A stretch of 64,000 nucleotides of DNA. Origin: Escherichia coli. GTDB lineage: Bacteria > Pseudomonadota > Gammaproteobacteria > Enterobacterales > Enterobacteriaceae. Both the position numbers and the translations under genes were made by a program. The notes below the pieces were generated by a model. That model was not told the origin of the DNA. It ran no database searches and saw nothing but the letters and a program-made list of their open reading frames with translations. The DNA lies in assembly GCF_050920415.1 (NCBI RefSeq), contig NZ_CP169309.1; one strand, 5' to 3'. Of this stretch, positions 1,413 through 62,477 are shown piece by piece (position 1 is the first letter of the stretch; each line of letters begins with the position of its first letter).

Positions 1413-1985
1413 TTACGCCGGTTTTTGCTGCTTTTTTATCGCTTGCGGCAGGTCTGCCAGGCTATTTAACACCCAATCCGCCGCGTTTTCTGCTTCAGGC
1501 GTAATAGGTTTTCCCGTACGCACCAGCACTTTTGTTCCCACGTTCGCCGCAGCCGCTGCCTGCATATCTTCTAATTTATCGCCCACCATATAAGAAGCAG
1601 CCATATCAATATGTAAATAATCGCGTGCTGACAAAAGCATCCCCGGATGTGGTTTGCGGCAATCGCAGACCTGACGAAACTCTTCAACACTACCCTGCGG
1701 ATGATGCGGGCAATAATAGATGCCATCCAGATCGACATCGCGGTCCGCCAGCGACCAGTCCATCCACTCGGTCAGCGTTTCAAACTGTGCTTCAGTAAAT
1801 TTACCGCGAGCAATGCCAGACTGGTTGGTTACTACCACCAGCGCAAAGCCCATTTTTTTTAGCTCGCGCATGGCGTCAATAACACCGTCGATAAATTCAA
1901 AGTTGTCGATCTCATGGACATAGCCGTGATCGACATTAATGGTGCCATCACGGTCAAGAAAAATTGCGGGTACGCTCTTCGCCAC
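1413..1985 (-). CDS. gmhB: D-glycero-beta-D-manno-heptose-1,7-bisphosphate 7-phosphatase (HAD family)
   Basis: 190-aa [20 protein letters not shown]... with HAD motif DxDGT. GTG start. Lies immediately upstream of the rrn promoters. Confidence 0.95.
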
Positions 1986-10355: not shown

Positions 10356-10520
10356 AAGAAAACTCCTTTCGAATCAGGAGGCCATTGTAACGGAATACGT
10401 GCAGTTGCGACGCTGATATTGCAGAAATGAGTGTGGTATAGTCACCTTGCGAAACAGAGTTTATCTTCGTAGGCTTAGACTTGCATCCACGGTTAAGTCA
10501 GAGTGCTGACAGGAGGGCAT

Positions 10521-10721
10521 GTGGAAAAATATTGTGAGTTAATACGCAAGCGGTACGCGGAAATCGCCAGCGGAGACTTAGGATACGTTCCGGACGCGCT
10601 GGGCTGCGTTTTGAAAGTGCTGAATGAAATGGCTGCCGACGATGCCCTTTCTGAGGCTGTCAGGGAAAAAGCAGCATACGCTGCGGCAAACTTACTGGTG
10701 AGCGATTATGTCAATGAATGA
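10521..10721 (+). CDS. yaeP: Small conserved protein YaeP (UPF0253)
   Basis: 66-aa protein from a GTG start ([12 protein letters not shown]...). The track ORF begins 6 codons upstream at an ATG. 3' end overlaps rof. Confidence 0.8.
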
Positions 10722-21298: not shown

Positions 21299-22086
21299 TA
21301 ACGAATCAGACCGCGCGTTGAGCGTGCAAAGAAATCGGTAAAGGCTTTTACTTCCGGATATGTTTCCGCCAGTTCGGCAATTTCCGGTTTCACTTCATCG
21401 AGCGTTTTACCGCTGCGATAAATCAGCTTATACGCATTGCGGATAGCGGTAATCGCCTCACGGCTGAATCCGCGGCGCTTCAGCCCTTCGATGTTGACAC
21501 CGAACGGCGTTGCGTGGTTACCCTGCGCAATGACATAAGGAGGGACGTCCTGCGCCACACCGGAACAGCCGCCAACCATCACGTGCGCACCAATGATGCA
21601 GAACTGATGGACTGCGGTCATGCCGCCGATGATCGCGAAGTCGTCTACCGATACATGACCCGCCAGCGTTGCGTTGTTGGCGAGGATGCAGCGGTTACCT
21701 ACCGTACAATCGTGCGCAATGTGCGCGTTGATCATCAGTAAGTTGTCGCTGCCCACCTTCGTCAATCCACCGCCCTGGACTGTGCCACGATGAATGGTGA
21801 CGCTTTCGCGAATGCGGTTACGATCGCCGATTTCCACACGGGTCGGTTCGCCAGCATATTTAAGATCCTGGTTGACTTCGCCGATGGAGGCGAACTGATA
21901 AATCTCATTGTCGCGGCCAATTTTAGTATGACCATTCACAACAACGTGAGATTTCAGTACGGTACCCTCACCAATTTCGACATGGGGTCCAACGATACAA
22001 AAAGGACCAATGTGAGCGTTGGCGGCAATCGATGCGCCCTCTTCCACAATGGCGGTTGGATGCACAAAGGCGGATTTATCAATCAC
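21298..22086 (-). CDS. lpxA: UDP-N-acetylglucosamine O-acyltransferase
   Basis: 262-aa ORF with hexapeptide repeats. 1-nt overlap with lpxB. Confidence 0.96.
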
Positions 22087-22089
22087 GTA

Positions 22090-22545
22090 TCAGGCCTCCC
22101 GGCTACGAGCACACATCATCGTTGCTTCGCAAACTACTTTACCGTCGACCAGAGCAACCCCTTTAAAACGGGTCAGGCCGCGGCGCGTTTTTTCGAAAGT
22201 GACTTCCATGATCATTTGATCGCCAGGCACGACCGGGCGCTTGAAGCGCGCTTCGTCAATACCAGCGAAATAGTACAGCTCACCCGGTTCCAGTTTTCCT
22301 ACGCTTTTAAACGCCAGAATACCTGTTGCCTGTGCCATTGCTTCCAGAATAAGCACACCCGGGAAAATCGGTTTTCCAGGGAAATGGCCCTGGAAGAATG
22401 GCTCATTGACAGAGACATTTTTTACTGCGCGCAGAAAACGACCTTCTTCAAAATCCAGCACGCGATCCACCAGTAAGAACGGGAAACGGTGCGGCAGAAG
22501 TTCTAAAATCTCTTCAATCTGCAGAGTATGAGTGTTAGTAGTCAA
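22090..22545 (-). CDS. fabZ: 3-hydroxyacyl-ACP dehydratase FabZ
   Basis: 151-aa protein (L)[26 protein letters not shown]... from a TTG start. The track ORF is extended 31 codons upstream. Confidence 0.93.
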
Positions 22546-22649
22546 GATACTCTTCCTGTCAAAATATAAGAAACGACAATAATAACACGGCCTGCCGCAA
22601 TCGTAAGAATGAGACAGGCCGTAAAGTTTGGCGAACAAAAGATGGAACG

Positions 22650-23675
22650 TTAGTCTTGTTGATTAACCTTGCGCTCAAGCGATTTCAAACGCTTGCTCAT
22701 GTCATCAATGTTCATCACCAGTGCAGCGGTTTTGCGCCAGACTTTGTTGGGTTGCAGCGGAATGCCTGAGGAATAGACGCCTGGTTCAGTGATGGGACGC
22801 ATCACCATACCCATGCCCGTAACCGTCACTTTGTCGCATATTTCCATATGCCCGTTGATTACGCTGGCTCCGCCGATCATGCAGTAACGACCAATTTTCA
22901 GGCTTCCCGCCATAATGACGCCACCGGCAACCGCCGTATTGTCACCAATCACGACGTTATGTGCAATCTGGCACTGGTTATCAATGATCACACCATTGCC
23001 AATAACAGTGTCATCCAGCGCGCCGCGATCGATGGTAGTACATGCGCCGATCTCCACGCGATCGCCAATAATTACGCGACCAATCTGCGGGATCTTCACC
23101 CAGTTACCCCGATCGTTGGCATAACCAAAGCCGTCTGCGCCTACCACTGTTCCAGACTGGATCAGGCAATTCTGACCGATCTGGATCTCATGGTAAATGG
23201 TTACGTTCGCCCAGAGACGCGAACCTGCACCTATTTTGCTGTTTTTACCTACGAAGCAACCGGCACCGATAATCACGTTATCGCCCAGTTCAACGCCGGA
23301 CTCAATCACCGCGTTAGCGCCAATCGATACGTTGTTACCCAGCTTCGCCGTCGCGTCAATCACTGCACTGGGTGCAATGTTCTGCGCAGGCTGCGGCGTG
23401 GTATCTAAAATTTGCGCCATGCGCGCGTAAGTCAGGTAGGGGTTCTTCACTACCAGCGCGGCACTTTTCGCGAAAGGAAGATCGTCCTGGGTCATGACAA
23501 CCGCGGACGCCTGGCACAAGCCTAAATGCTCACGGTATTTTGGGTTAACCATGAACGTGATGTGACCTGTTTGTGCAGATTGCATGGACGCAACGCCGGT
23601 GATGACGATATCGCCATCACCGTGTAGTTCTGCATCCAACTGCTGCGCTAAATCAGCCAGTCGAATTGAAGGCAT
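22650..23675 (-). CDS. lpxD: UDP-3-O-(3-hydroxymyristoyl)glucosamine N-acyltransferase
   Basis: 341-aa [25 protein letters not shown]... with hexapeptide repeats. Confidence 0.96.
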
Positions 23676-23678
23676 TAC

Positions 23679-24164
23679 TTATTTAACCTGTTTCAGTACG
23701 TCAGCAGTGATGTCTTTTACATCGCTGCTGTTGTAAGCAACGGCGTTTGCATCAACAACCAGATCGATATCCTGGCTGTTGGCAACGGATTTCACAGCAG
23801 TCTGGATACGAGTAACCAGTTTGCCGCGTTCTTCGTTGGAACGACGAGCGCGATCCTGCTCAAAAGCCTGCGCTTTCTGAGCAAAAGTCTGGCGCTGAGC
23901 CATCACGTCTTTTTCCAGTTTGGTACGATCGCTGCCCGCTTTCATGGACTGCAGCTTTTTCATTTTAGCCTGCAGATCGGTTTCCATACGCTGCAGTTCG
24001 CTGGCACGGCCTTTGAACTCATTTTCCAGCGTGTTAGAAACACCGGTTTTCTGCGCTACCTGCTGGAACAGGCTGCCCATATTGACGATTGCAATTTTGT
24101 CAGCCGCCTGAGCAGAAGTTGCCAGTGCTAAACCGAGACCTGCAGCTAATAACCACTTTTTCAC
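23679..24164 (-). CDS. skp: Periplasmic chaperone Skp
   Basis: 161-aa ORF with signal peptide [20 protein letters not shown]. Confidence 0.96.
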
Positions 24165-28111: not shown

Positions 28112-28969
28112 TTAAAGCGTCCTGAATACCAGTAACAACAAGCAAGCAAAGACCGGTACCGCAGCCGTCAGACTATCAATACGATCTAAAATACCACCGT
28201 GTCCTGGAATTAAATGACCGCTGTCCTTAATTCCTGCTTCACGCTTAAACATACTCTCGGTCAGATCGCCGAGCACTGAGGCTAACGCTGCGACAATAGA
28301 GCAAATGAGTAAGGTGACGGGAGCGACGTCGAGATTCGCCCACATGCCATAACCCCATGAGATTACCGCTGCAGTCGCGAGTCCACCGATAAAGCCTTGC
28401 CAGGTTTTACCCGGAGAAACCTTCGGTGCCAGCTTATGTTTACCAAACAATTTGCCAAACATATATGCGCCAGAGTCAGCGCCCCATACCAGGATCATGA
28501 CATAGAGCAGCCATATTGCGCCACTGTAATGATTCTCGTCGTAGTGCCAGGCCCGTAACGCCAGCATGCCCCAGAAGAAGGGAACAATGGTTAGCACGCC
28601 AAAAATAATGCGCAATGTTTTAGAGTTACGCCAGATTGCTGCGGAACCTGGGTAAAACAGCACCAGCAATAGCGCGACAATCCACCAACCCAGCGAAGCC
28701 CAAAGTGAGATTTCAACCAGCGGTTGATGAATATTTCGGTGATATTCCGGCAACAGAAAAAGCATCAGCGCCAACAATAACCCACATAACACCGCCAACC
28801 ATACTCGCTGCGAGCGAGTGGTAAAACCGCTAAGCTGTCCCCATTCCCACGCTGCCAGCATGCAGACCACCAGCGTTACAATGGCGAACCCCACCGGCGG
28901 CAACAGAAACAACGCCGCGATGACGACGGGTATTAACACAAAAGCAGATATCAGGCGATACTTCAGCAA
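28112..28969 (-). CDS. cdsA: Phosphatidate cytidylyltransferase (CDP-diglyceride synthase)
   Basis: 285-aa polytopic membrane [24 protein letters not shown].... Confidence 0.95.
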
Positions 28970-28981
28970 AAGCGACCCCCA

Positions 28982-29743
28982 TCAGGCTGTTTCATCACCG
29001 GGCTCGGTGCCGCCGAAACGACGCTCTCGATTAGCAAAGGCATTTAACGCCCCTTCAAAGTCTTGTTCATCGAAATCGGGCCAGAGAACATCTGTAAAGT
29101 AAAGTTCGGCATAGGCAATTTGCCAAAGCAAAAAGTTACTAATGCGATGCTCCCCCCCAGTCCTAATTACTAAATCTACAGGGGCCAGTTCATGCATACA
29201 GACATGCTGGTTTAGCATCTCTTCATCTATCTGATCTGGTTGCAGGTTTCCTTGCTGCACCTTTTCAGCCAGTTGCCTGACTCCCTGGACTATATCCCAA
29301 CGTCCACCGTAGTTCGCCGCAATATTCAGCGTTAGACCGGTATTTCCGGCTGTTAGCGCTTCCGATTTACGAATACGTTCTTGCAAACGCGAGTTAAAGC
29401 GACTGGTATCGCCAATAATACGCAGACGTACGTTATGTCGGTGCAGGCTTTTTACTTCGCTATCGAGCGCCCAAACAAACAGTTCCATTAACGCACTGAC
29501 TTCCTGCGCTGGTCGGTTCCAGTTTTCACTACTAAAGGCATACAGCGTTAACGCCTCAATACCGTTGTTGGCCGCAAAAGAGACAGCCCGGCGGACGGAT
29601 TTTGCCCCGGCTTTATGCCCAAAGGCACGAATCTTCCCTTGCTTTTTTGCCCAGCGACCATTGCCGTCCATAATGATCGCAACATGACGACAGCCATGTA
29701 CTGGCAATTTTTCGCTAAGTGGTTGAGTAGCAGACAACATCAC
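28982..29743 (-). CDS. uppS: Undecaprenyl-diphosphate synthase
   Basis: 253-aa ORF with HVAIIMDGNGRWA motif. Confidence 0.96.
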   Translation of the reverse strand: MMLSATQPLSEKLPVHGCRHVAIIMDGNGRWAKKQGKIRAFGHKAGAKSVRRAVSFAANNGIEALTLYAFSSENWNRPAQEVSALMELFVWALDSEVKSLHRHNVRLRIIGDTSRFNSRLQERIRKSEALTAGNTGLTLNIAANYGGRWDIVQGVRQLAEKVQQGNLQPDQIDEEMLNQHVCMHELAPVDLVIRTGGEHRISNFLLWQIAYAELYFTDVLWPDFDEQDFEGALNAFANRERRFGGTEPGDETA

Positions 29744-29928: not shown

Positions 29929-31125
29929 TCAGCTTGCGAGACGCGTCACCTCTTTTCTGGCGACTTCACGCGCGTTCGTATCAACAGATAACACATCGTC
30001 CACGCATTGTGGTTCGCGCATATCCATTTTTTCCAGTACGGATAAATTCAACGCGGCGATATCCGTAAAGCGGATTTGTTGCGCAAGAAAGGCTGCAACG
30101 GTGATTTCGTTTGCGGCATTCAATGCAGTCGTCGCAGCCTGGCCTTGTTCGAACGCGTCCATTGCCAGTTTAAGGCATGGATAGCGATCATAATCCGGTG
30201 CGGCAAATGTCAACGCACTGAGTTTGCAAAAATCGAGCGGCTTCACACCAGAGTTCACGCGATTCGGCCAGGCCATGGTGTGGGCAATTGGCGTACGCAT
30301 ATCCGGTTCACCCAACTGCGCCAGAACGCTGCCGTCCTGGTAGCGCACCATTGAGTGAATCACTGACTGCGGGTGAATCAGCACTTCCATCTGGCTGGCA
30401 CTGGCGTTAAACAACCAACGCGCTTCAATGTATTCCAGACCTTTGTTCATCATGGTAGCCGAATCGACAGAAATTTTACGCCCCATCGACCAGTTCGGAT
30501 GACGGCAGGCTTGATCCGGCGTCATTATTGCCAAATCGCGCAATGGCGTCTCACGGAAAGGGCCACCAGACCCGGTAAGTAAAATGGACACCACGCCATT
30601 TTGCTCAAGGTCAGCGTATCCCAGATTATGCTGGATAGGTTGCGGTAAACTCTGAAAAATGGCGTTATGTTCGCTATCGACCGGTAACAATTGCGCTTTG
30701 CTCTGCTTTACGGCGTCCATAAACAGACGTCCGCAGGTAACCAGTGATTCTTTATTGGCCAGCAAAATGGTTTTACCCGCGCGGATCGCAGCAAGCGTAG
30801 GTAACAGCCCAGCAGCGCCAACAATGGCTGCCATCACCTGATCAACATCCTCAAGCGCTGCCATATCGCAAGCGGCTTGTTGCCCACTTAAGACTTCGGT
30901 GCGGCTACCCTGTTGCTGTAGCATCGTTTTAAGAAGTTTCGCACTCGCTTCATCGTCCATTACGGCATAGCGGGGAGAGAATTCCAGGCACTGCTCTACC
31001 ATGCGAGTGACATTTTTGCCTGCCACCAGCGCAACTACGCGGAAGTGTTCGGGATTATGGCGCACCACGTCCAGCGTGCTGCAACCAATCGAGCCGGTCG
31101 AGCCCAGAATGGTGAGTTGCTTCAT
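29929..31125 (-). CDS. dxr: 1-deoxy-D-xylulose-5-phosphate reductoisomerase
   Basis: 398-aa [28 protein letters not shown].... Confidence 0.97.
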
Positions 31126-31149
31126 GAAACATCCAGAGTTGAGACAGAG

Positions 31150-31198
31150 TAAAAAGCAAAACGCCGCCAGCCGATCCGCAAGGATCTACTGAGCGGCG
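31150..31198 (-). terminator. Rho-independent terminator downstream of frr
   Basis: Minus-strand GC-rich stem (CGCCGC...GCGGCG with inner GATCC-GCAA-GGATC) followed by TTTTGCTTTTT. Confidence 0.75.
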
Positions 31199-31217
31199 TT
31201 TTTTGTCGTTCAAGAAA

Positions 31218-31775
31218 TCAGAACTGCATCAGTTCTGCTTCTTTGTCTGCCAGCGCCGCTTCAATTTTCTTGATTGCAGCATCAGTCAGTTTCTGTACAT
31301 CGTCCTGAGAACGGCGATCGTCGTCTTCGCTGATCTCTTTATCTTTCAACAGTGCTTTCACTTTGTCGTTCGCGTCACGACGCACGTTGCGTACTGCAAC
31401 ACGCGCTTGCTCTGCTTCACCACGAACGATTTTGGTCAGATCTTTACGACGTTCTTCCGTCAGCGGCGGCAGCGGAACACGGATGTCGCTACCCGCAGAG
31501 TTCGGGTTCAGGCCAAGATCGGACGCCATAATCGCTTTTTCAACGGCCGGAGACATTGAACGATCAAACACGTTGATTTTCAGAGTACGGGAATCTTCTA
31601 CCGTTACGCTTGCCAGCTGACGCAGCGGCGTCGGCGTGCCGTAATATTCCACGACAATGCCATCCAGCAGGCTGGGAGAAGCACGACCCGTGCGTATTTT
31701 GCTGATTTGGGTTTTGAACGCTTCTACGCATTTGTCCATGCGTACTTCAGCATCTTTTCTGATATCGCTAATCAC
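31218..31775 (-). CDS. frr: Ribosome recycling factor
   Basis: 185-aa ORF (M)[20 protein letters not shown]... from a GTG start. Confidence 0.97.
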
Positions 31776-32066
31776 GTTACGAATCCTTGAAAACTTGTCT
31801 CAGTCAGACCAGACAGTCACACACAGTGGAAGTGTGCTAAGTATAGCCCTGATTAAACATATTACGGGTAATCGTCTGGATTATTAGGCTATTTTATTTG
31901 CCATTTTGGCCCCGGGCAGTGCTCGCCATCCTCACGTACTTGTGTACGCTCCGGTTGCTGCGCGCTGGCCGTGACCAAACTGCCTGCAACAATAACGCCT
32001 TATAACCAGACTTACGCCCCCGCGATACTTGTGCGGAATCTTACCCTTATTTATCCATCACGGGAA

Positions 32067-32792
32067 TTATTCCGTGATTAAAGTCCCTTCTTTTTCACCC
32101 ATTACCACACGGCGCAGCGCACCCGGTTTGTTCATGTTGAAAACACGAATCGGTAATTTATGGTCACGAGCCAGCGTGAAGGCCGCCAGGTCCATGACTT
32201 TCAGCTCTTTTTCCAGCACTTCGCTGTAAGTCAGTTGCTCGTACATGGTTGCGGTTGGATCTTTCGCCGGATCAGCGGTAAACACGCCGTCAACTTTGGT
32301 TGCTTTCAGCACCACATCAGCTTCAATTTCGATACCACGCAGGCAAGCTGCTGAGTCGGTGGTAAAGAACGGGTTACCTGTACCGGCGGAGAGGATCACC
32401 ACACGGTTGTTGCGCAACAAGCTGATAGCTTCTGCCCAGCTGTAGCTGTCGCACACGCCATTCAATGGAATAGCGGACATCAGACGAGCGTTCACATAGG
32501 CGCGGTGCAGTGCATCACGCATTGCCAGGCCGTTCATTACGGTCGCCAGCATTCCCATGTGGTCGCCCACAACGCGGTTCATACCCGCTTTCGCCAGACC
32601 AGCGCCACGGAACAGGTTACCCCCACCAATCACCACACCAACCTGAATACCCAGTTCAACCAGTTCTTTGATTTCCTGAGCCATGCGATCCAGTATGCTT
32701 GCATCAATACCGAAGCCTTCCGTGCCCTGCAGAGCTTCGCCACTCAACTTAAGCAGAATGCGTTTATAGACGGGTTTTGCATTGGTAGCCAT
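32067..32792 (-). CDS. pyrH: Uridylate kinase
   Basis: 241-aa [24 protein letters not shown].... Confidence 0.97.
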
Positions 32793-32899
32793 GTTTCTTT
32801 CCTGAGACTGTCAACGATTGAAATGAATTAATACCGGCGACATTGTACGTCGCTTTTCAGCGCAGCCCCATAAGGGTTAGCTGAATTTACAAGATGGGC

Positions 32900-32926
32900 G
32901 CAAAAAGAAGCCGCCCTCAGGCGGCT
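32900..32926 (-). terminator. Rho-independent terminator downstream of tsf
   Basis: Minus-strand AGCCGCC-TGAG-GGCGGCT hairpin followed by TCTTTTTG. Confidence 0.8.
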
Positions 32927-32938
32927 CCTTTTCGATAA

Positions 32939-33790
32939 TTAAGACTGCTTGGACATCGCAGCAACTTCTGCTGCAAAGTCAGTCTCAACTTTCTCGATGC
33001 CTTCACCTACTTCGAAGCGGATGAAGCCAGTCACTTCAGCGTTATGCTCTTTCAGCAGCTGACCAACAGTTTTGCTTGGTTCCATAACGAACGGCTGACC
33101 GGTCAGAGAAACTTCGCCGGTGAATTTCTTCATGCGGCCTTCAACCATTTTCTCTGCGATTTCTTTCGGCTTACCAGACTGCATCGCGATATCCAGCTGA
33201 ACCTGGTATTCTTTCTCTACCACTTCAGCGGAAACATCTTCCGGTTTGATGAATTCTGGTTTGCTTGCAGCAACGTGCATAGCGATGTGTTTAACCAGCT
33301 CTTCGTCAGCGCCTTTAGCAGCAACCAGAACGCCGATACGCGCACCGTGCTGATAAGAACCCAGAACGTCGCCTTCCAGCGCAGCAACGCGGCGAATGTT
33401 GATGTTTTCACCAATTTTCGCTACCAGCGCAACACGTTCTTCTTCGAACTGTGCTTTCAGAACTTCAACGTCAGTGATTTTGCCAGCAACAGCTGCGTCC
33501 AGAACTTTGTCTGCGAACGCCTGGAAACCAGCGTCTTTTGCAACGAAGTCAGTCTGGCAGTTAACTTCCAGAATGATGCCGTAGTTGCCGTCGATTTTGG
33601 TTTTGATCACGCCGTCAGCAGCAACGTTGCCTGCTTTTTTCGCTGCTTTGATAGCACCGGACTTACGCATGTTTTCGATTGCCAGCTCGATGTCGCCGTT
33701 AGCTTCAGTCAGTGCTTTTTTGCAATCCATCATGCCTGCGCCAGTACGCTCACGCAGCTCTTTTACCAGGGATGCGGTAATTTCAGCCAT
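32939..33790 (-). CDS. tsf: Elongation factor Ts
   Basis: 283-aa [30 protein letters not shown].... Confidence 0.98.
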
Positions 33791-33842: not shown

Positions 33843-33873
33843 AAGTGAAAAAGGGGGCCATATGCAGGCCCCC
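33843..33873 (-). terminator. Intrinsic terminator or attenuator in the rpsB-tsf spacer, ~50 nt upstream of tsf
   Basis: Minus-strand GGGGGCC-TGCATAT-GGCCCCC perfect 7-bp GC stem followed by TTTTTCACTTTT. Confidence 0.8.
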
Positions 33874-34047
33874 TAACCAAACGTGTACTACCTGGTCTAT
33901 AAGGGCTCTCCCCCTTCATATTTCGCGCCGCAGATGCGTTGTCTTCGCTCGCTCATCCCGGTCACTTACTGATGTAAGCTCCCGGGAATTCTCGAGCTTG
34001 CCGCCTTTCTGCAACTCGAACTATTTTGGGGGAGTTATCAAGCCTTA

Positions 34048-34995
<948 letters not shown>

Positions 34996-42302: not shown

Positions 42303-43727
42303 TTACTGCATTAACAGATAGATGGTGCTGTCGCCGCGCTGAATATTCAGTGCCAGCACAGACGGTTTGCTGTCGAGAACTTTACGCAGTTCAGCGATGT
42401 TTTTCACTGCCTGCTGGTTCGCACCAATAATCACATCACCTTTCTTCAGGCCGATCTGCGCAGCCGGAGTGCCCGTTTTCACGTTGTTCACCACCACGCC
42501 CTGATCTTTGCCTTTGTTGCTCATCTCAGCGCCTTCAATGCCGTTGAAGATGGTGCTGGAATCAACCTGATTCTGGCTGCTCTGCTGCAGTTCCAGGTTC
42601 ACGTTAACCTGCTTCCCGTCGCGCAGTAAGCCCAGGGTCAGTTTGCTGCCTACCGGCATAGTGCCCACCTGAGCACGCAGTGCGGCAAAGCTGCTGATTG
42701 GCTTACCGTTCAGTGAGGTGATCACATCACCCGCTTTAATGCCCGCTTTCGCGGCGGAAGAGTTCGGCAGAACCTGGCTTACGAAAGCACCGCGCTGGGC
42801 GTCAACTTTCATCGCTTTCGCCAGATCGGAGTTCAGCTCAGTGCCCATAATACCCAGCTCACCACGTTTCACCTGGCCGTATTCCACCATCTGCGAGGTC
42901 AGGTTTTTCACCATGTTGCTCGGGATAGCAAAACCGATACCGATGTTTCCGCCGTCCGGTGCGAGGATCGCGGTGTTGATACCAATCAGTTCGCCGTTCA
43001 GGTTAACCAGCGCGCCACCAGAGTTACCCCGGTTGATCGCAGCATCGGTCTGGATGAAGTTTTCATAGTTTTCGGCATTCAGACCGCTACGCCCCAGCGC
43101 AGAGACAATCCCGGAAGTTACCGTCTCGCCCAGACCAAACGGGTTACCAATTGCTACGGTGTAATCACCCACGCGCAGTGCATCAGAATCCGCCATCTTA
43201 ATTGCGGTCAGATTTTTCGGGTTCTGGATCTGGATCAGCGCGATATCAGAGCGCGGATCTTTGCCAACCATCTTCGCGTCGAACTTACGACCATCGCTCA
43301 GCTGGACTTTAATCACCGTCGCGTTATCAACAACGTGGTTGTTGGTGACGACATAGCCTTTATCGGCATCAATGATGACGCCGGAACCCAGCGCCATGAA
43401 TTTCTGTTGTTGGCCGCCGCCATTACCGCCCTGGCCCCCCTGGCAGAACGGAGAGCTCTGGAACGGAGAACCTTCCTGGCAGAACGGAGAATCATCACCG
43501 AAGAACTGCTGGAAATTACGCGGCATACGCGGCGTATTAACGGTTGTGCTACCTTCTACGTTAATGCTGACCACTGAAGGCATCACCTTTTCGAGCATCG
43601 GTGCAAGGCTTGGCATCTGCTGGGCTGTCGTTGCTGAAGAAGTCTCAGCCGCCGTTGCAGAGAGCGGAGATAACGCCAAACCTAAACTCAGAGCCAGTGC
43701 ACTCAGTGCTAATGTGGTTTTTTTCAT
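42303..43727 (-). CDS. degP: Periplasmic serine endoprotease DegP (HtrA)
   Basis: 474-aa ORF with signal peptide, trypsin-like domain (GNSGGAL), Q/G-rich loop and two PDZ domains. Confidence 0.97.
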   Translation of the reverse strand: MKKTTLALSALALSLGLALSPLSATAAETSSATTAQQMPSLAPMLEKVMPSVVSINVEGSTTVNTPRMPRNFQQFFGDDSPFCQEGSPFQSSPFCQGGQGGNGGGQQQKFMALGSGVIIDADKGYVVTNNHVVDNATVIKVQLSDGRKFDAKMVGKDPRSDIALIQIQNPKNLTAIKMADSDALRVGDYTVAIGNPFGLGETVTSGIVSALGRSGLNAENYENFIQTDAAINRGNSGGALVNLNGELIGINTAILAPDGGNIGIGFAIPSNMVKNLTSQMVEYGQVKRGELGIMGTELNSDLAKAMKVDAQRGAFVSQVLPNSSAAKAGIKAGDVITSLNGKPISSFAALRAQVGTMPVGSKLTLGLLRDGKQVNVNLELQQSSQNQVDSSTIFNGIEGAEMSNKGKDQGVVVNNVKTGTPAAQIGLKKGDVIIGANQQAVKNIAELRKVLDSKPSVLALNIQRGDSTIYLLMQ

Positions 43728-43772
43728 GTATTTCAGTCTCGATTAACAGATAACGCAAAATTGCTGTGTTCT

Positions 43773-51166: not shown

Positions 51167-53149
51167 TTAACGGCTCTGCTTTCTCAACAAATAGATAAAA
51201 TACGGCGCGCCGATAAAGGTCGACAGCAGCCCCGCTGGGATCTGGAATGGAAACAGCACCATCCGCCCACACCAGTCAGCGAACACCAGCAGTAAACCAC
51301 CCACCAGCGCCGAAATCACAATATGCGGCATCGTCCGTCGAAAGCCCATCATCCGCGCGATATGCGGTGCCATCAGACCAACAAAACTCAACGGTCCAAT
51401 GGTCATTGTCGCGGTCGCCGTCAGGCAAGCCGCCAGCAGCAGTAGCGCAATTCGCGTCGGCGTCAGCGCCATTCCCACTGCTCGTGCGGTATCACCGCCC
51501 AGCGGTAAAATGGTCAGCCAGCGGCGGCACAGCGGGGTAATCGCCAGCAAAATTACCATCACAATTCCCGTGCGCCAGACCTGCGCCTCGGTCGCGTTGT
51601 AGGTCGAACCGGAAATCCACGTCAGCACTTGCGCCATTCGCGGGTCACCACTTGCCTGCAACATCATCAAAAGCATGGTGAACGCGGTACTTAAGGCCAT
51701 CCCCGCCAGTAACATGCGGTGTGGGGAAAATCCACCGCGTCCGGCAGCGATCATAATGATCAACAGCGTCACCGCCGCGCCGAGACTGCCCGCGGGTAAC
51801 AGCCAGCCAAAGGCATTACCCGGCACCAAAAACAGCATCAATACCACACCAAACGCCGCGCCGGAACTAATCCCCAGCACTTCCGGGCTTGCCATCGGGT
51901 TTCCGGTCAGCCGCTGAATAATACAGCCCGCCACTGCCAGCATGATGCCCGCAAACAGTGCCGCCATAATTCGCGGCCAGCGCCAGGGCATTAAATCATC
52001 GAGCAGCGCCCCGCTCGCCCACGTCCAGCCGTGCGCATCACGACCAAACGACAGCGCCACCACCACAGCAATTATCAGCAGCACACCGCCAGCAAGGGCA
52101 AACGCCAGCACATGTTGGCGTTCAGTCGCGACACGATCGTTGGCCTTCATATCCGGCGCACTGATGCTGCGTAAACGCGGCAGCAGCCACAGCAGCAGCG
52201 GCGCACCGATGAGCGCAGTGACCGAACCGGTAGAAACTTCCATCCACACGCGAGTCAGCCAGAGGATGATTTGATCGGAAAGCCAGAGGATCAGCGCACC
52301 AATCAGTGACGCCAGCAGCAGTCTTGGCAGCAGACGCCGCGCCCCCAGCATTTTTGCCAGCAGCGGCGCGAACAACCCGATAAAGCCGATAATCCCCACC
52401 GCGTTCACCAGCAGCGCACTGATGACTATCGCCAGCGACAGCGCCGCCAGACGCGCGAGCGACAAGGCCAGCCCGAGATTGCGCGCCACGCCATCATCAA
52501 GCCCCATCAGGGTTAACGGACGAAGTAGCAGTAACGTCAGCATCACGCCGCCCAGCAACTGCGGCCATAAACGCTCAACGCCGCCCCAGTCGGTTTGCGT
52601 CAGCGTTCCGGTGCTCCACAGGAACATGCTTTGTAGCTGGTCGTGATGGAAGATAACCAGTAACTGATTGATTGCCCCGCAATAAAGGCTCACCACAAGC
52701 CCCGCGAGGATCAGCGTTACCGGAGAAAGCCGTTTCCCCCACGCGACGCCAAAGACAATTAAGCCAACCACACAAGCCCCTGCCAATGCAGCAAACTGGC
52801 TCGCCATCGCACCAGGGATCGCCCAGAGCGTGGTGACGGTAATCCCCAGTTGCGCGCCTGTAGCAACGCCCAACGTCGTCGGTTCCGCCAGCGGGTTACG
52901 CAGCACTTGCTGAAACAGCACGCCCACCAGCCCCAGGCCCGCGCCCACCAGCAGCAAAATCGCCAGACGCGGTAACAAGCTGTAGTGAAAAATCATCTGC
53001 TCGATGACATCGATATCCGGCGACCAGGTGGCCTGCACCCACTGGCTACGCGGCAGCGCCTGCGAGAAGTTCATCCAGGTGAGCATCGCTGCGGCAATCA
53101 CCAGCAGCGCCAACAATAACGCCGGGAAAAGCGCAATACGTTTACTCAC
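51167..53149 (-). CDS. fhuB: Ferrichrome ABC transporter permease
   Basis: 660-aa ORF with duplicated FecCD-type permease halves. 4-nt overlap with fhuD. Confidence 0.96.
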   Translation of the reverse strand: MSKRIALFPALLLALLVIAAAMLTWMNFSQALPRSQWVQATWSPDIDVIEQMIFHYSLLPRLAILLLVGAGLGLVGVLFQQVLRNPLAEPTTLGVATGAQLGITVTTLWAIPGAMASQFAALAGACVVGLIVFGVAWGKRLSPVTLILAGLVVSLYCGAINQLLVIFHHDQLQSMFLWSTGTLTQTDWGGVERLWPQLLGGVMLTLLLLRPLTLMGLDDGVARNLGLALSLARLAALSLAIVISALLVNAVGIIGFIGLFAPLLAKMLGARRLLPRLLLASLIGALILWLSDQIILWLTRVWMEVSTGSVTALIGAPLLLWLLPRLRSISAPDMKANDRVATERQHVLAFALAGGVLLIIAVVVALSFGRDAHGWTWASGALLDDLMPWRWPRIMAALFAGIMLAVAGCIIQRLTGNPMASPEVLGISSGAAFGVVLMLFLVPGNAFGWLLPAGSLGAAVTLLIIMIAAGRGGFSPHRMLLAGMALSTAFTMLLMMLQASGDPRMAQVLTWISGSTYNATEAQVWRTGIVMVILLAITPLCRRWLTILPLGGDTARAVGMALTPTRIALLLLAACLTATATMTIGPLSFVGLMAPHIARMMGFRRTMPHIVISALVGGLLLVFADWCGRMVLFPFQIPAGLLSTFIGAPYFIYLLRKQSR

Positions 53150-59974: not shown

Positions 59975-62404
59975 TCATGAATACTTTTTCGTCCGTCGCG
60001 TCGGTGCGGTATTTGCCGGATCATCCGGCCAGACGTGTTTGGGATAACGCCCTTTCATCTCTTTTTGCACATCGCAATACGCTCCTTTCCAGAAGGCGCT
60101 CAAATCTCGTGTGATTTGCAGCGGCCTTTGGGCAGGAGAAAGCAACTCCAGCACCAGCGGCACACGCCCCTGGGCGATCGTCGGATTGGTGGCCTCGCCA
60201 AACATCTCCTGCATTCTCACCGCCAGCGCGGGCGGGTTATCTTCATGGTAACGAATGGCGATCCGGCTTCCCGTCGGCACAGTGTAATGCGCAGGCAATT
60301 CACTATCCAGACGTTGCTGCATCCCCCAATCAAGTAATCCGCGTAGCGCCTGATAAATATCGAGTGATTTCAGGCCGCGTAGCGAATGTACGCCTGCCAT
60401 ATGCGGCAGTAGCCACGTTTCCAGCGTCGCCAACAAACTTTCATCATCAACCGCTGGCCAGTCATATTCTGGCAACCACCTGGCGGCGCATAACAAACGC
60501 AAGCGTAGCTGTTCCGCTTCCGGCGTCCAGTTAAGCACGCTTAAGCCTTTTTCACGAATGCCGTTAAGCATCGCCTGATGCAGCTCGTCTTCTGAAGGCT
60601 TCGCCAGCGGCTGCACTTTTACCGTCAGTTGGCCGATTTGCAACCGACGCCAGGCTTTCAGCGTACCTTGCGCATCATCCCACTCCACGGTGTCCGATTG
60701 CTGCACCAGCTGCGGACAGCGTTGCACTAATTCATCGATATCGACCGGTAGCGCCAGTAAAATCCGCGCATCCGGCGAGGCGCTACCCTGCAATAATAAC
60801 GGTGCGATCAACCATTCGTGGCGGCTGAGCGCATCATCGGCATCGAGCATTGCCCCCATGCCGTTTGCCAGTTGATAGCGCCCCTCTTGCCCACGGCGGC
60901 GAGCGATGCGATCGGCAAACGCTCCGGCAAGTAACGGTGCGATAAGCGAACTGTCTGCCTCACCGCCGCGTACGTTTAAGCGCTTTAACAGTTGCTGGCT
61001 ACGTTGCTGCCAGGCAGGTTGATTGCGCGAAAACGCCACGCCCAGATCGATATTGCCCATCCGTGGTGGCTCTTCGAGAATAGCGGCAATTTTTGCAGCG
61101 GTAGCAGCTTCGTCGTCGCTCTTTGCGCTCACCAGCATTGCCGCTAAACGCGGATCGTTACCCAGCGTCGCCATTTTCTGCCCTTTCGTGCTTAGCCGTT
61201 CACCGTCCATCGCCCCCAGCATCCGCAACAGGCGTTTCGCGGCCTGTAAATTCACGGCTGGCGGTTGATCCAGCCAGCTCATCTGCGTCGGATCGCTGCA
61301 TCCCCATTGCAGTAATTCCATCAGCAAACCGGAGAGATCGCTTTGTAAGATTTCCGGTTCACTTTGCGCGGAGGCGCGTTCTGCTTGTTCTTTGGCGATT
61401 AAATGTAGACAGATCCCCGGCTCCAGACGTCCGGCACGCCCCGCACGCTGCGTCATAGATGCCTGACTAACGCGTTGAGTAATCAGCCGCGTAAGCCCCG
61501 TGCGCGGATCAAAGCGCGCCACACGTTCCTGAGCACAATCCACCACCAGACGAATACCTTCGATGGTTAAACTGGTTTCAGCAATATTGGTTGCCAGCAC
61601 TACTTTGCGCATCCCTTCTGGTGCCGGAAGGATCGCTTTTCGCTGATCGTTCAGCGACAACGCGCCATACAGCGGGCAGAGCAACACATCACTACCGATG
61701 CGCGAAGCCAGTTGTTCCTGAACGCGCTGAATTTCTCCGACACCAGGTAAAAATAACAGTAATGAGCCGCTTTCCTGATGCAGCAATTCGGCGGTGGCAA
61801 CCGCCACGGCTTCATCAAAACGCTGATGAGCGGGCAGCGGTAAATATCGGCGTTCAACCGGAAACGAGCGCCCTTCTGAGATGACGACGGGCGCTTCTGG
61901 CAGCATCTGCTGCAAGCGGTCATTGTCCAGCGTAGCCGACATAATCAGTAGTTTAAGGTCATCACGCAGACCTTGTTGCACATCGAGTAACAGCGCCAAC
62001 GCCAGATCCGCCTGCAAGCTGCGCTCATGAAACTCATCGAGGATCACCAATCCAACGCCGCTCAGTTCAGGGTCACGCTGGATCATGCGCGTCAACACGC
62101 CTTCGGTAACTACTTCCAGGCGAGTATTTGGCCCGACACAGTTTTGCGCGCGCATCCGGTAGCCTACCGTATCACCTGTTTTTTCGTTAAGCAGTTCCGC
62201 CAGTCGTTGCGCAACGTTACGCGCCGCCAGGCGACGCGGCTCCAGCAGGATAATTTTTCCGTTAATGCCGGGATGCGCCAGCAGTTGCAGCGGCAGCCAG
62301 GTTGATTTCCCGGCCCCGGTCGGCGCACTTAATAACACCTGCGGTGCACCATCGAGGGCAGCAAGTAACTCAGGTAAGACGGCAGCAACGGGCAACGACG
62401 ACAC
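59975..62404 (-). CDS. hrpB: ATP-dependent RNA helicase HrpB (DEAH-box)
   Basis: 809-aa protein from a GTG start (VSSLPVAAVLPELLAALDGAPQVLLSAPTGAGKST...) with DEFH box. The track ORF is extended 15 codons upstream. Confidence 0.93.
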   Translation of the reverse strand: MSSLPVAAVLPELLAALDGAPQVLLSAPTGAGKSTWLPLQLLAHPGINGKIILLEPRRLAARNVAQRLAELLNEKTGDTVGYRMRAQNCVGPNTRLEVVTEGVLTRMIQRDPELSGVGLVILDEFHERSLQADLALALLLDVQQGLRDDLKLLIMSATLDNDRLQQMLPEAPVVISEGRSFPVERRYLPLPAHQRFDEAVAVATAELLHQESGSLLLFLPGVGEIQRVQEQLASRIGSDVLLCPLYGALSLNDQRKAILPAPEGMRKVVLATNIAETSLTIEGIRLVVDCAQERVARFDPRTGLTRLITQRVSQASMTQRAGRAGRLEPGICLHLIAKEQAERASAQSEPEILQSDLSGLLMELLQWGCSDPTQMSWLDQPPAVNLQAAKRLLRMLGAMDGERLSTKGQKMATLGNDPRLAAMLVSAKSDDEAATAAKIAAILEEPPRMGNIDLGVAFSRNQPAWQQRSQQLLKRLNVRGGEADSSLIAPLLAGAFADRIARRRGQEGRYQLANGMGAMLDADDALSRHEWLIAPLLLQGSASPDARILLALPVDIDELVQRCPQLVQQSDTVEWDDAQGTLKAWRRLQIGQLTVKVQPLAKPSEDELHQAMLNGIREKGLSVLNWTPEAEQLRLRLLCAARWLPEYDWPAVDDESLLATLETWLLPHMAGVHSLRGLKSLDIYQALRGLLDWGMQQRLDSELPAHYTVPTGSRIAIRYHEDNPPALAVRMQEMFGEATNPTIAQGRVPLVLELLSPAQRPLQITRDLSAFWKGAYCDVQKEMKGRYPKHVWPDDPANTAPTRRTKKYS

Positions 62405-62477
62405 AAAACGCTCCAGAGGGTTAACATTCTTCGCGCCACATTGTAGCATCGCGGTAATGCATAACCGAGTACCTCAC

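Follow-up and report, generated by a model that had tools for sequence, protein, structure and literature searches.

Retention of a GTG start codon across genera has been described for lacI, cra and mlc, and in lacI a single-base change to ATG alters both output and fitness (PMC11445065). The genes analysed here resemble them in keeping their non-ATG starts across genera. The three described genes, however, encode low-abundance transcription regulators followed within one family, the Enterobacteriaceae, whereas those considered here are housekeeping genes and the conservation extends over several orders. On average, start codons experience weak selection; the authors who reported this considered purifying selection possible for a subset of GUG starts (PMC5622118). 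A sub-optimal start on a translation-related gene, as found in frr, is also known from infC, which starts with AUU and is subject to IF3 feedback, and from rpsT, which starts with UUG and is subject to S20 feedback; the TTG start of rpsT was confirmed. The AUU of infC is non-canonical and is discriminated against by IF3, whereas the non-ATG codons of the DNA studied here are all GTG or TTG. As GUG and UUG are canonical near-cognates, infC represents a different class. We know of no feedback of RRF or FabZ on its own mRNA.

The DNA analysed, referred to as the window, is a 64-kb stretch of Escherichia coli that corresponds to the reverse complement of approximately 160.6–224.6 kb of the K-12 genome (gmhB to sfsA), with 94–97% identity. 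Positions 30500–33500 of the window, the 3 kb around frr, are 100% identical to E. coli MFDS1022581 (NZ_CP169399.1), and the gene coordinates of the latter between 4165029 and 4229028 fit the open reading frames of the window exactly. Two annotations were therefore overlaid on it, a lift-over of the curated K-12 RefSeq annotation (NC_000913.3) and the PGAP annotation of NZ_CP169399.1. The original prediction, made from the sequence alone, had assigned GTG starts to frr, gmhB, yaeP and hrpB and a TTG start to fabZ, and both annotations place all five codons at the predicted coordinates and on the predicted strands. The frr gene (31218–31775, minus strand; 185 aa) starts with GTG at 31773–31775. 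GTG is also the start of gmhB (1983–1985, minus strand; coding sequence 1413–1985), of yaeP (10521–10523, plus strand; coding sequence 10521–10721) and of hrpB (62402–62404, minus strand; coding sequence 59975–62404), and the TTG start of fabZ is at 22543–22545 (minus strand; coding sequence 22090–22545). The same codons are found at the homologous positions of K-12, and the encoded proteins are of equal length, with the exception of GmhB, which has 190 aa in the window and 191 aa in K-12. Between the PGAP annotation of the window strain and that of K-12, ispU and rof begin at slightly different codons. The five GTG and TTG starts are thus already known from curated public annotation. A literature search on the fabZ TTG start found no relevant publication.

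Most of the experiments by which such starts could be verified, among them the N-terminal proteomics and initiation-site mapping proposed with the original prediction, are already available. In a 2026 N-terminomics study, one frr peptide and two gmhB peptides begin at the GTG codons, and they carry methionine, not valine, at their N-terminus (PMC13245402, Table S1), which places both starts at GTG. A second data set gives cell-free INRI-seq and in vivo Ribo-RET values for each annotated start (PMC9825163, Table S2). Its peaks coincide with the annotated starts of frr, fabZ, lpxA, skp, cdsA and ispU, all of which were detected by Ribo-RET, with values of 547 for frr, 239.6 for fabZ, 120.9 for lpxA, 91.9 for skp, 9.3 for ispU and 7.5 for cdsA (PMC9825163); the frr and fabZ starts are also positive in INRI-seq. 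Neighbouring ATG starts for which values are shown (dxr, rseP, bamA, lpxD and accA) have Ribo-RET values of 0–80 (PMC9825163). At the hrpB GTG, no INRI-seq or Ribo-RET peak is present and the start is scored zero, as is that of lpxD (PMC9825163, Table S2). Initiation at in-frame downstream ATG codons, the finding that was to refute the prediction, is implausible because large conserved N-terminal parts of the proteins would be lost: the first such ATG is found at codon 13 in frr, 39 in gmhB, 37 of 66 in yaeP, 84 in hrpB and 70 of 151 in fabZ.

Two further signals were noted in these data. An ATT codon 9 nt 5′ of the frr GTG and in frame with it (31782–31784, minus strand) carries a minor, unannotated INRI-seq and Ribo-RET signal, the Ribo-RET value being 62 against 547 at the GTG (PMC9825163). 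Loci outside the E. coli-like group lack a conserved ATT at this position, the GTG-initiated peptide is the only one detected, and the signal is probably a shoulder of the main GTG peak. The N-terminomics table also contains a Skp peptide beginning at Met60 (METDLQAK...; codon at 23985–23987, minus strand), a possible internal start that is without ribosome-profiling support.

The two annotations contain additional non-ATG starts that were absent from the original prediction. Those of lpxA (GTG, 22084–22086), skp (GTG, 24162–24164), cdsA (TTG, 28967–28969) and fhuB (GTG, 53147–53149), all on the minus strand, are present in both RefSeq and PGAP, and a GTG start of ispU (29743, minus strand) is found in the K-12 annotation only, PGAP placing the start one codon later at an ATG (29740). 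In total, 9–10 of the 57 genes of the window (16–18%) start with a codon other than ATG. Genome-wide, 83, 14 and 3% of E. coli genes start with ATG, GTG and TTG, respectively, that is, 17% are non-ATG (bioRxiv 10.1101/063800). The count is the one predicted from the genome average, with no enrichment in the window as a whole (binomial P(≥10) = 0.51 against 17%), and hence the “cluster” of non-ATG starts that had been proposed is not borne out. The densest stretch runs from frr to lpxA, where 6 of 10 consecutive genes are non-ATG in the K-12 annotation; this run is not significant genome-wide, having a chance of 4.8% in a random 57-gene window and of 0.99 in a 4300-gene genome. The companion idea, that these codons sit on essential genes, does not hold for the five as a set: transposon-directed insertion sequencing (TraDIS) classifies frr and fabZ as essential, and gmhB, yaeP and hrpB as non-essential (PMC5821084).

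The conservation of the starts was followed in species-representative genomes. A scan with the Frr protein, taking 10-kb flanks, yielded 80 loci with Frr identities of 59–99%, belonging to Enterobacterales, Vibrionales, Alteromonadales and a few other Gammaproteobacteria. The starts of 13 genes per locus were called by tblastn and extrapolation to residue 1. The alignments themselves reach residue 1 at the start codon in 79 of the 80 loci for frr, and in most loci for fabZ and cdsA. The frr gene starts with GTG in 72 of 80 loci, with ATG in seven and with TTG in one. TTG is the start of fabZ in 55 of 71 loci, the remainder having GTG (13) or ATG (3), and it is also that of cdsA in 62 of the 75 loci with a callable start. 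For skp, GTG or TTG was found in 53 of 57 loci, and lpxA starts with GTG in most Enterobacterales and in Shewanella, and with ATG in Vibrio. Counted by genus, frr has a non-ATG start in 43 of 50, fabZ in 41 of 44, skp in 35 of 39, cdsA in 37 of 46 and lpxA in 29 of 42, whereas neighbouring ATG genes keep their ATG, rpsB, tsf and bamA having it in all genera and pyrH in 49 of 50. The starts of cdsA and skp are thus conserved as deeply as those of frr and fabZ on this sequence comparison, and that of lpxA is conserved less widely. The calls leave little room for other choices in frr and cdsA, where no other in-frame start-type codon follows the upstream stop in 67 of 80 and 67 of 75 loci, respectively; with skp, lpxA and part of fabZ the calls carry more uncertainty. 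The frr 5′ untranslated region cannot be aligned between orders, apart from an AAGG/AGGA core that most of the listed loci share.

The starts were measured against synonymous positions of the same genes, taken from columns in which the amino acid is conserved. For frr, the G of the start codon persists in 90% of loci; the 255 synonymous sites that have G in the window keep it in 44% on average, with a maximum of 89.9%. Parsimony on a neighbour-joining tree gives six changes of the frr start in 81 taxa, and two switches between ATG and non-ATG for fabZ in 72 taxa. Expressed as changes per taxon, the frr start (0.074) is slower than four-fold sites (0.34) and than two-fold A/G sites (0.163), of which 18% are as slow as the frr start or slower. 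With two-fold A/G sites changing at no more than about double the rate of the frr start, and with 18% of them at or below its rate, the rate argument taken alone is modest. The direction of the bias, a G retained at a position where ATG is generally favoured, weighs more than the rate. The non-ATG state of frr, fabZ, cdsA and skp thus appears to be kept beyond neutral expectation within the Gammaproteobacteria, and these genes look like members of the GUG subset for which purifying selection was suggested (PMC5622118).

Regarding the ribosome binding sites, frr has a Shine-Dalgarno sequence AAGGA (31784–31788, minus strand) 8 nt 5′ of its GTG. The ten non-ATG genes pair with the 3′ end of 16S rRNA at duplex energies between −4.3 and −10.8 kcal/mol. 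Their median of −8.55 kcal/mol compares with −4.30 kcal/mol for the 47 ATG genes, which amounts to stronger pairing in the non-ATG genes (one-sided Mann-Whitney p = 6e-4). The window thus agrees with the pattern already described, in which a weak codon is compensated by a strong Shine-Dalgarno site (PMC5622118), although part of the difference could reflect the habits of annotators in accepting non-ATG starts. The original prediction had suggested that weak start codons may tune translation. Tuning by near-cognate starts is plausible and is strengthened by their conservation. A simple equation of weak start with low output does not hold, because the frr and fabZ peaks are among the strongest of the region and the Shine-Dalgarno pairing of the non-ATG genes is stronger.

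The fabZ start had also been described as following a 104-nt untranslated spacer after lpxD, and this is exact: the lpxD stop ends at 22650 and therefore the spacer (22546–22649, minus strand) measures 104 nt. It contains a GC-rich stem-loop (22587–22622, minus strand) that is predicted by folding and is conserved in Enterobacterales, where it was found in 27 of 29 loci with a length of 33–45 nt, 12–18 base pairs and a median energy of −24 kcal/mol. No variation was seen in the outer arms (GGCCUG and CAGGCC). In the inner stem the sequence changes between genera with the pairing kept, a covariation that was read from single-sequence folds and not from a structure-aware alignment, and RNAalifold on a MAFFT alignment of the spacers detected the outer invariant stem alone. 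Between the stem-loop and the fabZ TTG, a conserved stretch of about 45 nt contains GUURUURAUG and ends, directly before the TTG, in an invariant ACAGGAAGAGUAUU. Candidate roles for the stem-loop are those of a terminator, a stabiliser or an element associated with a promoter. No Rfam family matched the lpxD-fabZ spacer at the gathering threshold or at E ≤ 10. Consensus promoter scans of both spacers gave only weak sigma-70-like matches on the opposite strand, and a sigma-E promoter motif sought by eye could not be placed. Genomic SELEX has located a strong RpoE-holoenzyme site at K-12 position 202068, with an intensity of 30.9, which falls inside this spacer (PMC5493296); it is among the strongest RpoE sites of K-12, and weaker RpoH and RpoF signals accompany it (PMC5493296).

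An extended FabZ protein, starting at a TTG at 22638 within the spacer, was considered and rejected, as in other genera the reading frame is closed by a stop shortly before the fabZ start, five codons upstream of it in Pantoea, Erwinia and Rosenbergiella. The spacer is built differently in other orders. Several Vibrionaceae (loci L034–L043, L057 and L060) have another hairpin, with TTTTT and next a TATAAT box downstream of it and with the TTG kept, a layout that suggests a terminator and a separate fabZ promoter. In Alteromonadales there is almost no spacer between lpxD and fabZ, and a TTG or GTG start is kept all the same. Elsewhere in the window, Rfam matches at the gathering threshold were obtained for a partial 16S rRNA (1–1047), for the CssrA small RNA (33853–33962) between rpsB and tsf, for the t44 RNA (34801–34887) upstream of rpsB and for the thermometer in the 5′ untranslated region of HtrA (degP) (43722–43767), all on the minus strand.

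The remaining genes were compared in smaller samples. The gmhB start is GTG in Cronobacter, Serratia, Erwinia and Yersinia (four genera), although the DNA upstream of it has otherwise diverged, and the GTG of Yersinia is immediately preceded by a stop codon; the GmhB homologues begin at the same residue. In hrpB the start is GTG in Klebsiella and Edwardsiella and TTG in Photobacterium, the three genera sampled. For yaeP, GTG was found in Klebsiella, Scandinavium and Yokenella, where the frame has a stop nine codons before it; these three genera are close relatives with near-identical upstream DNA. The codon is therefore GTG or TTG in 10 of the 10 other genera sampled for the three genes, a count made of small samples (four, three and three). 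An AGGAGGG motif lies 4 nt upstream of the yaeP GTG, and the YaeP homologues, of 66 aa, have the same N-terminus.

Two genes have starts that differ between the annotations. The GTG that opens ispU in K-12 (29743; region 29738–29743, minus strand) is GTT in all other Enterobacterales loci, and the adjoining ATG is conserved. As PGAP also uses that ATG at 29740 and K-12 N-terminomics recovered peptides of both forms, MMLSATQ... and MLSATQ... (PMC13245402), the K-12 GTG looks like a recent, Escherichia-specific extra start beside the ancestral ATG. For rof (plus strand), PGAP begins at an ATG at 10708 (86 aa) and K-12 RefSeq at an ATG at 10714 (84 aa). INRI-seq detected unannotated in-frame ATG initiation 6 nt 5′ of the K-12 rof start, a position that favours the longer form.

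Altogether, we consider that these codons are genuine, annotated GUG and UUG starts of housekeeping genes, led by Shine-Dalgarno sites, unclustered and long kept, and most likely selected gene by gene; we assign this reading a probability of roughly 0.8. That some of the proteins begin elsewhere, at the hrpB ATG at 62449, at downstream ATG codons or at a CTG 15 nt before the yaeP start, is very unlikely, although hrpB and yaeP offer some ground for it. The hrpB gene has an in-frame ATG 15 codons upstream of its GTG (62447–62449, minus strand), present in both the window and K-12, the GTG itself shows no initiation peak, and a longer form of HrpB occurs in some database entries (P0001, P0060). 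This ATG was nevertheless rejected as a start. No Shine-Dalgarno site precedes it, and it overlaps a TACAAT motif, which Klebsiella variicola keeps while having a stop codon six codons before the GTG; the 15-aa extension has no protein conservation outside Escherichia- and Salmonella-like sequences (as seen, for example, in Pantoea and Yersinia), and most HrpB homologues open with MS(S/D/L/Q)LP, MSSLPV being the conserved N-terminus here, at the residue encoded by the GTG. With the Klebsiella stop, the aligned GTG and TTG codons, the conserved N-terminus and the unconserved extension, the hrpB GTG is well supported by comparison, not by experiment. The ATG lies within GATGCTACAATG, which includes the TACAAT box (62447–62460, minus strand), is common to E. 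coli and Klebsiella and falls into the divergent hrpB-thpR spacer of 73 nt, where it probably serves as the −10 element of the hrpB promoter and not as coding sequence. In yaeP, cell-free INRI-seq gives a signal in five of five replicates at an in-frame CTG 15 nt 5′ of the GTG (10506–10508, plus strand; PMC9825163), but this codon precedes the Shine-Dalgarno sequence, and in vivo Ribo-RET does not support it. The K-12 ispU GTG is itself doubtful as a start, as discussed above. For frr, gmhB and fabZ, on the other hand, there is direct experimental support, and a shift to downstream ATG codons would remove large conserved N-terminal parts.

If the starts are where they are annotated, they might still be tolerated leftovers, with slow mutation and shared ancestry sufficing to explain their persistence. 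We regard such neutral inheritance as unlikely, though several observations are compatible with it: average selection on start codons is weak (PMC5622118), nearly a fifth (18%) of the two-fold A/G synonymous sites show no more changes than the frr start does, and ATG replacements do arise and persist, in seven genera for frr and nine for cdsA. Against it, the surrounding 5′ untranslated regions have fully diverged between orders while the codon is unchanged, and the frr G is retained better than any synonymous G among the 255 compared. The opposite alternative would be a coordinated regulon, in which frr, cdsA, skp, fabZ and lpxA are jointly tied through their start codons to the status of initiation factors, initiator tRNA or ppGpp, so that stress would throttle ribosome recycling and envelope synthesis together. 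The run of six non-ATG starts among the ten genes from frr to lpxA, four or five of which are conserved across orders, speaks for it, as does one preprint that reportedly proposes starvation-linked control of genes preferring non-AUG starts. The same preprint is said to list 36 genes that keep non-AUG starts across diverse bacteria and are enriched for essential, often translation-related functions. A regulon of this kind is nevertheless very unlikely, as the local density is not significant genome-wide, the genes belong to several transcription units with ATG genes interspersed among them (dxr, rseP, bamA and lpxD), and GUG and UUG fall, as Sussman et al. reportedly found in 1996, in the class of codons against which IF3 hardly discriminates.

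In the reading that we prefer, of starts maintained individually, the ribosome would bind the Shine-Dalgarno site 4–9 nt upstream of the codon, the range of spacings of the five named genes, the initiator tRNA would pair with the near-cognate codon, and the protein would begin with (formyl)methionine. The non-ATG state has been held over long evolutionary spans, which for frr, fabZ, cdsA and skp include Enterobacterales, Vibrionales and Alteromonadales. We infer that the combination of a near-cognate codon and a strong Shine-Dalgarno site may set the initiation rate, or its sensitivity to the state of the initiation machinery, and that selection would maintain this set-point gene by gene, with no device common to “essential” genes. 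A more far-reaching proposal would see in the near-cognate starts of frr, cdsA, skp, fabZ and lpxA an old trait, selected for each gene separately, by which ribosome recycling and the synthesis of envelope lipids respond to the condition of the initiation machinery as they would not with ATG starts; fabZ may in addition use the conserved stem-loop and the sigma-E-bound region of its spacer; we offer it tentatively and consider it improbable.

The original prediction adds little by itself, because it restates curated annotation and the experiments proposed with it have mostly been published. The comparative result is of modest interest: frr, fabZ and cdsA, which are mostly essential, hold GUG or UUG against drift to AUG. 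A good example is FabZ, since the balance of phospholipid against lipopolysaccharide synthesis is set by how much FabZ is present relative to LpxC (PMC4651636). The three genes are thus good test cases for the question of why bacteria keep sub-optimal start codons.
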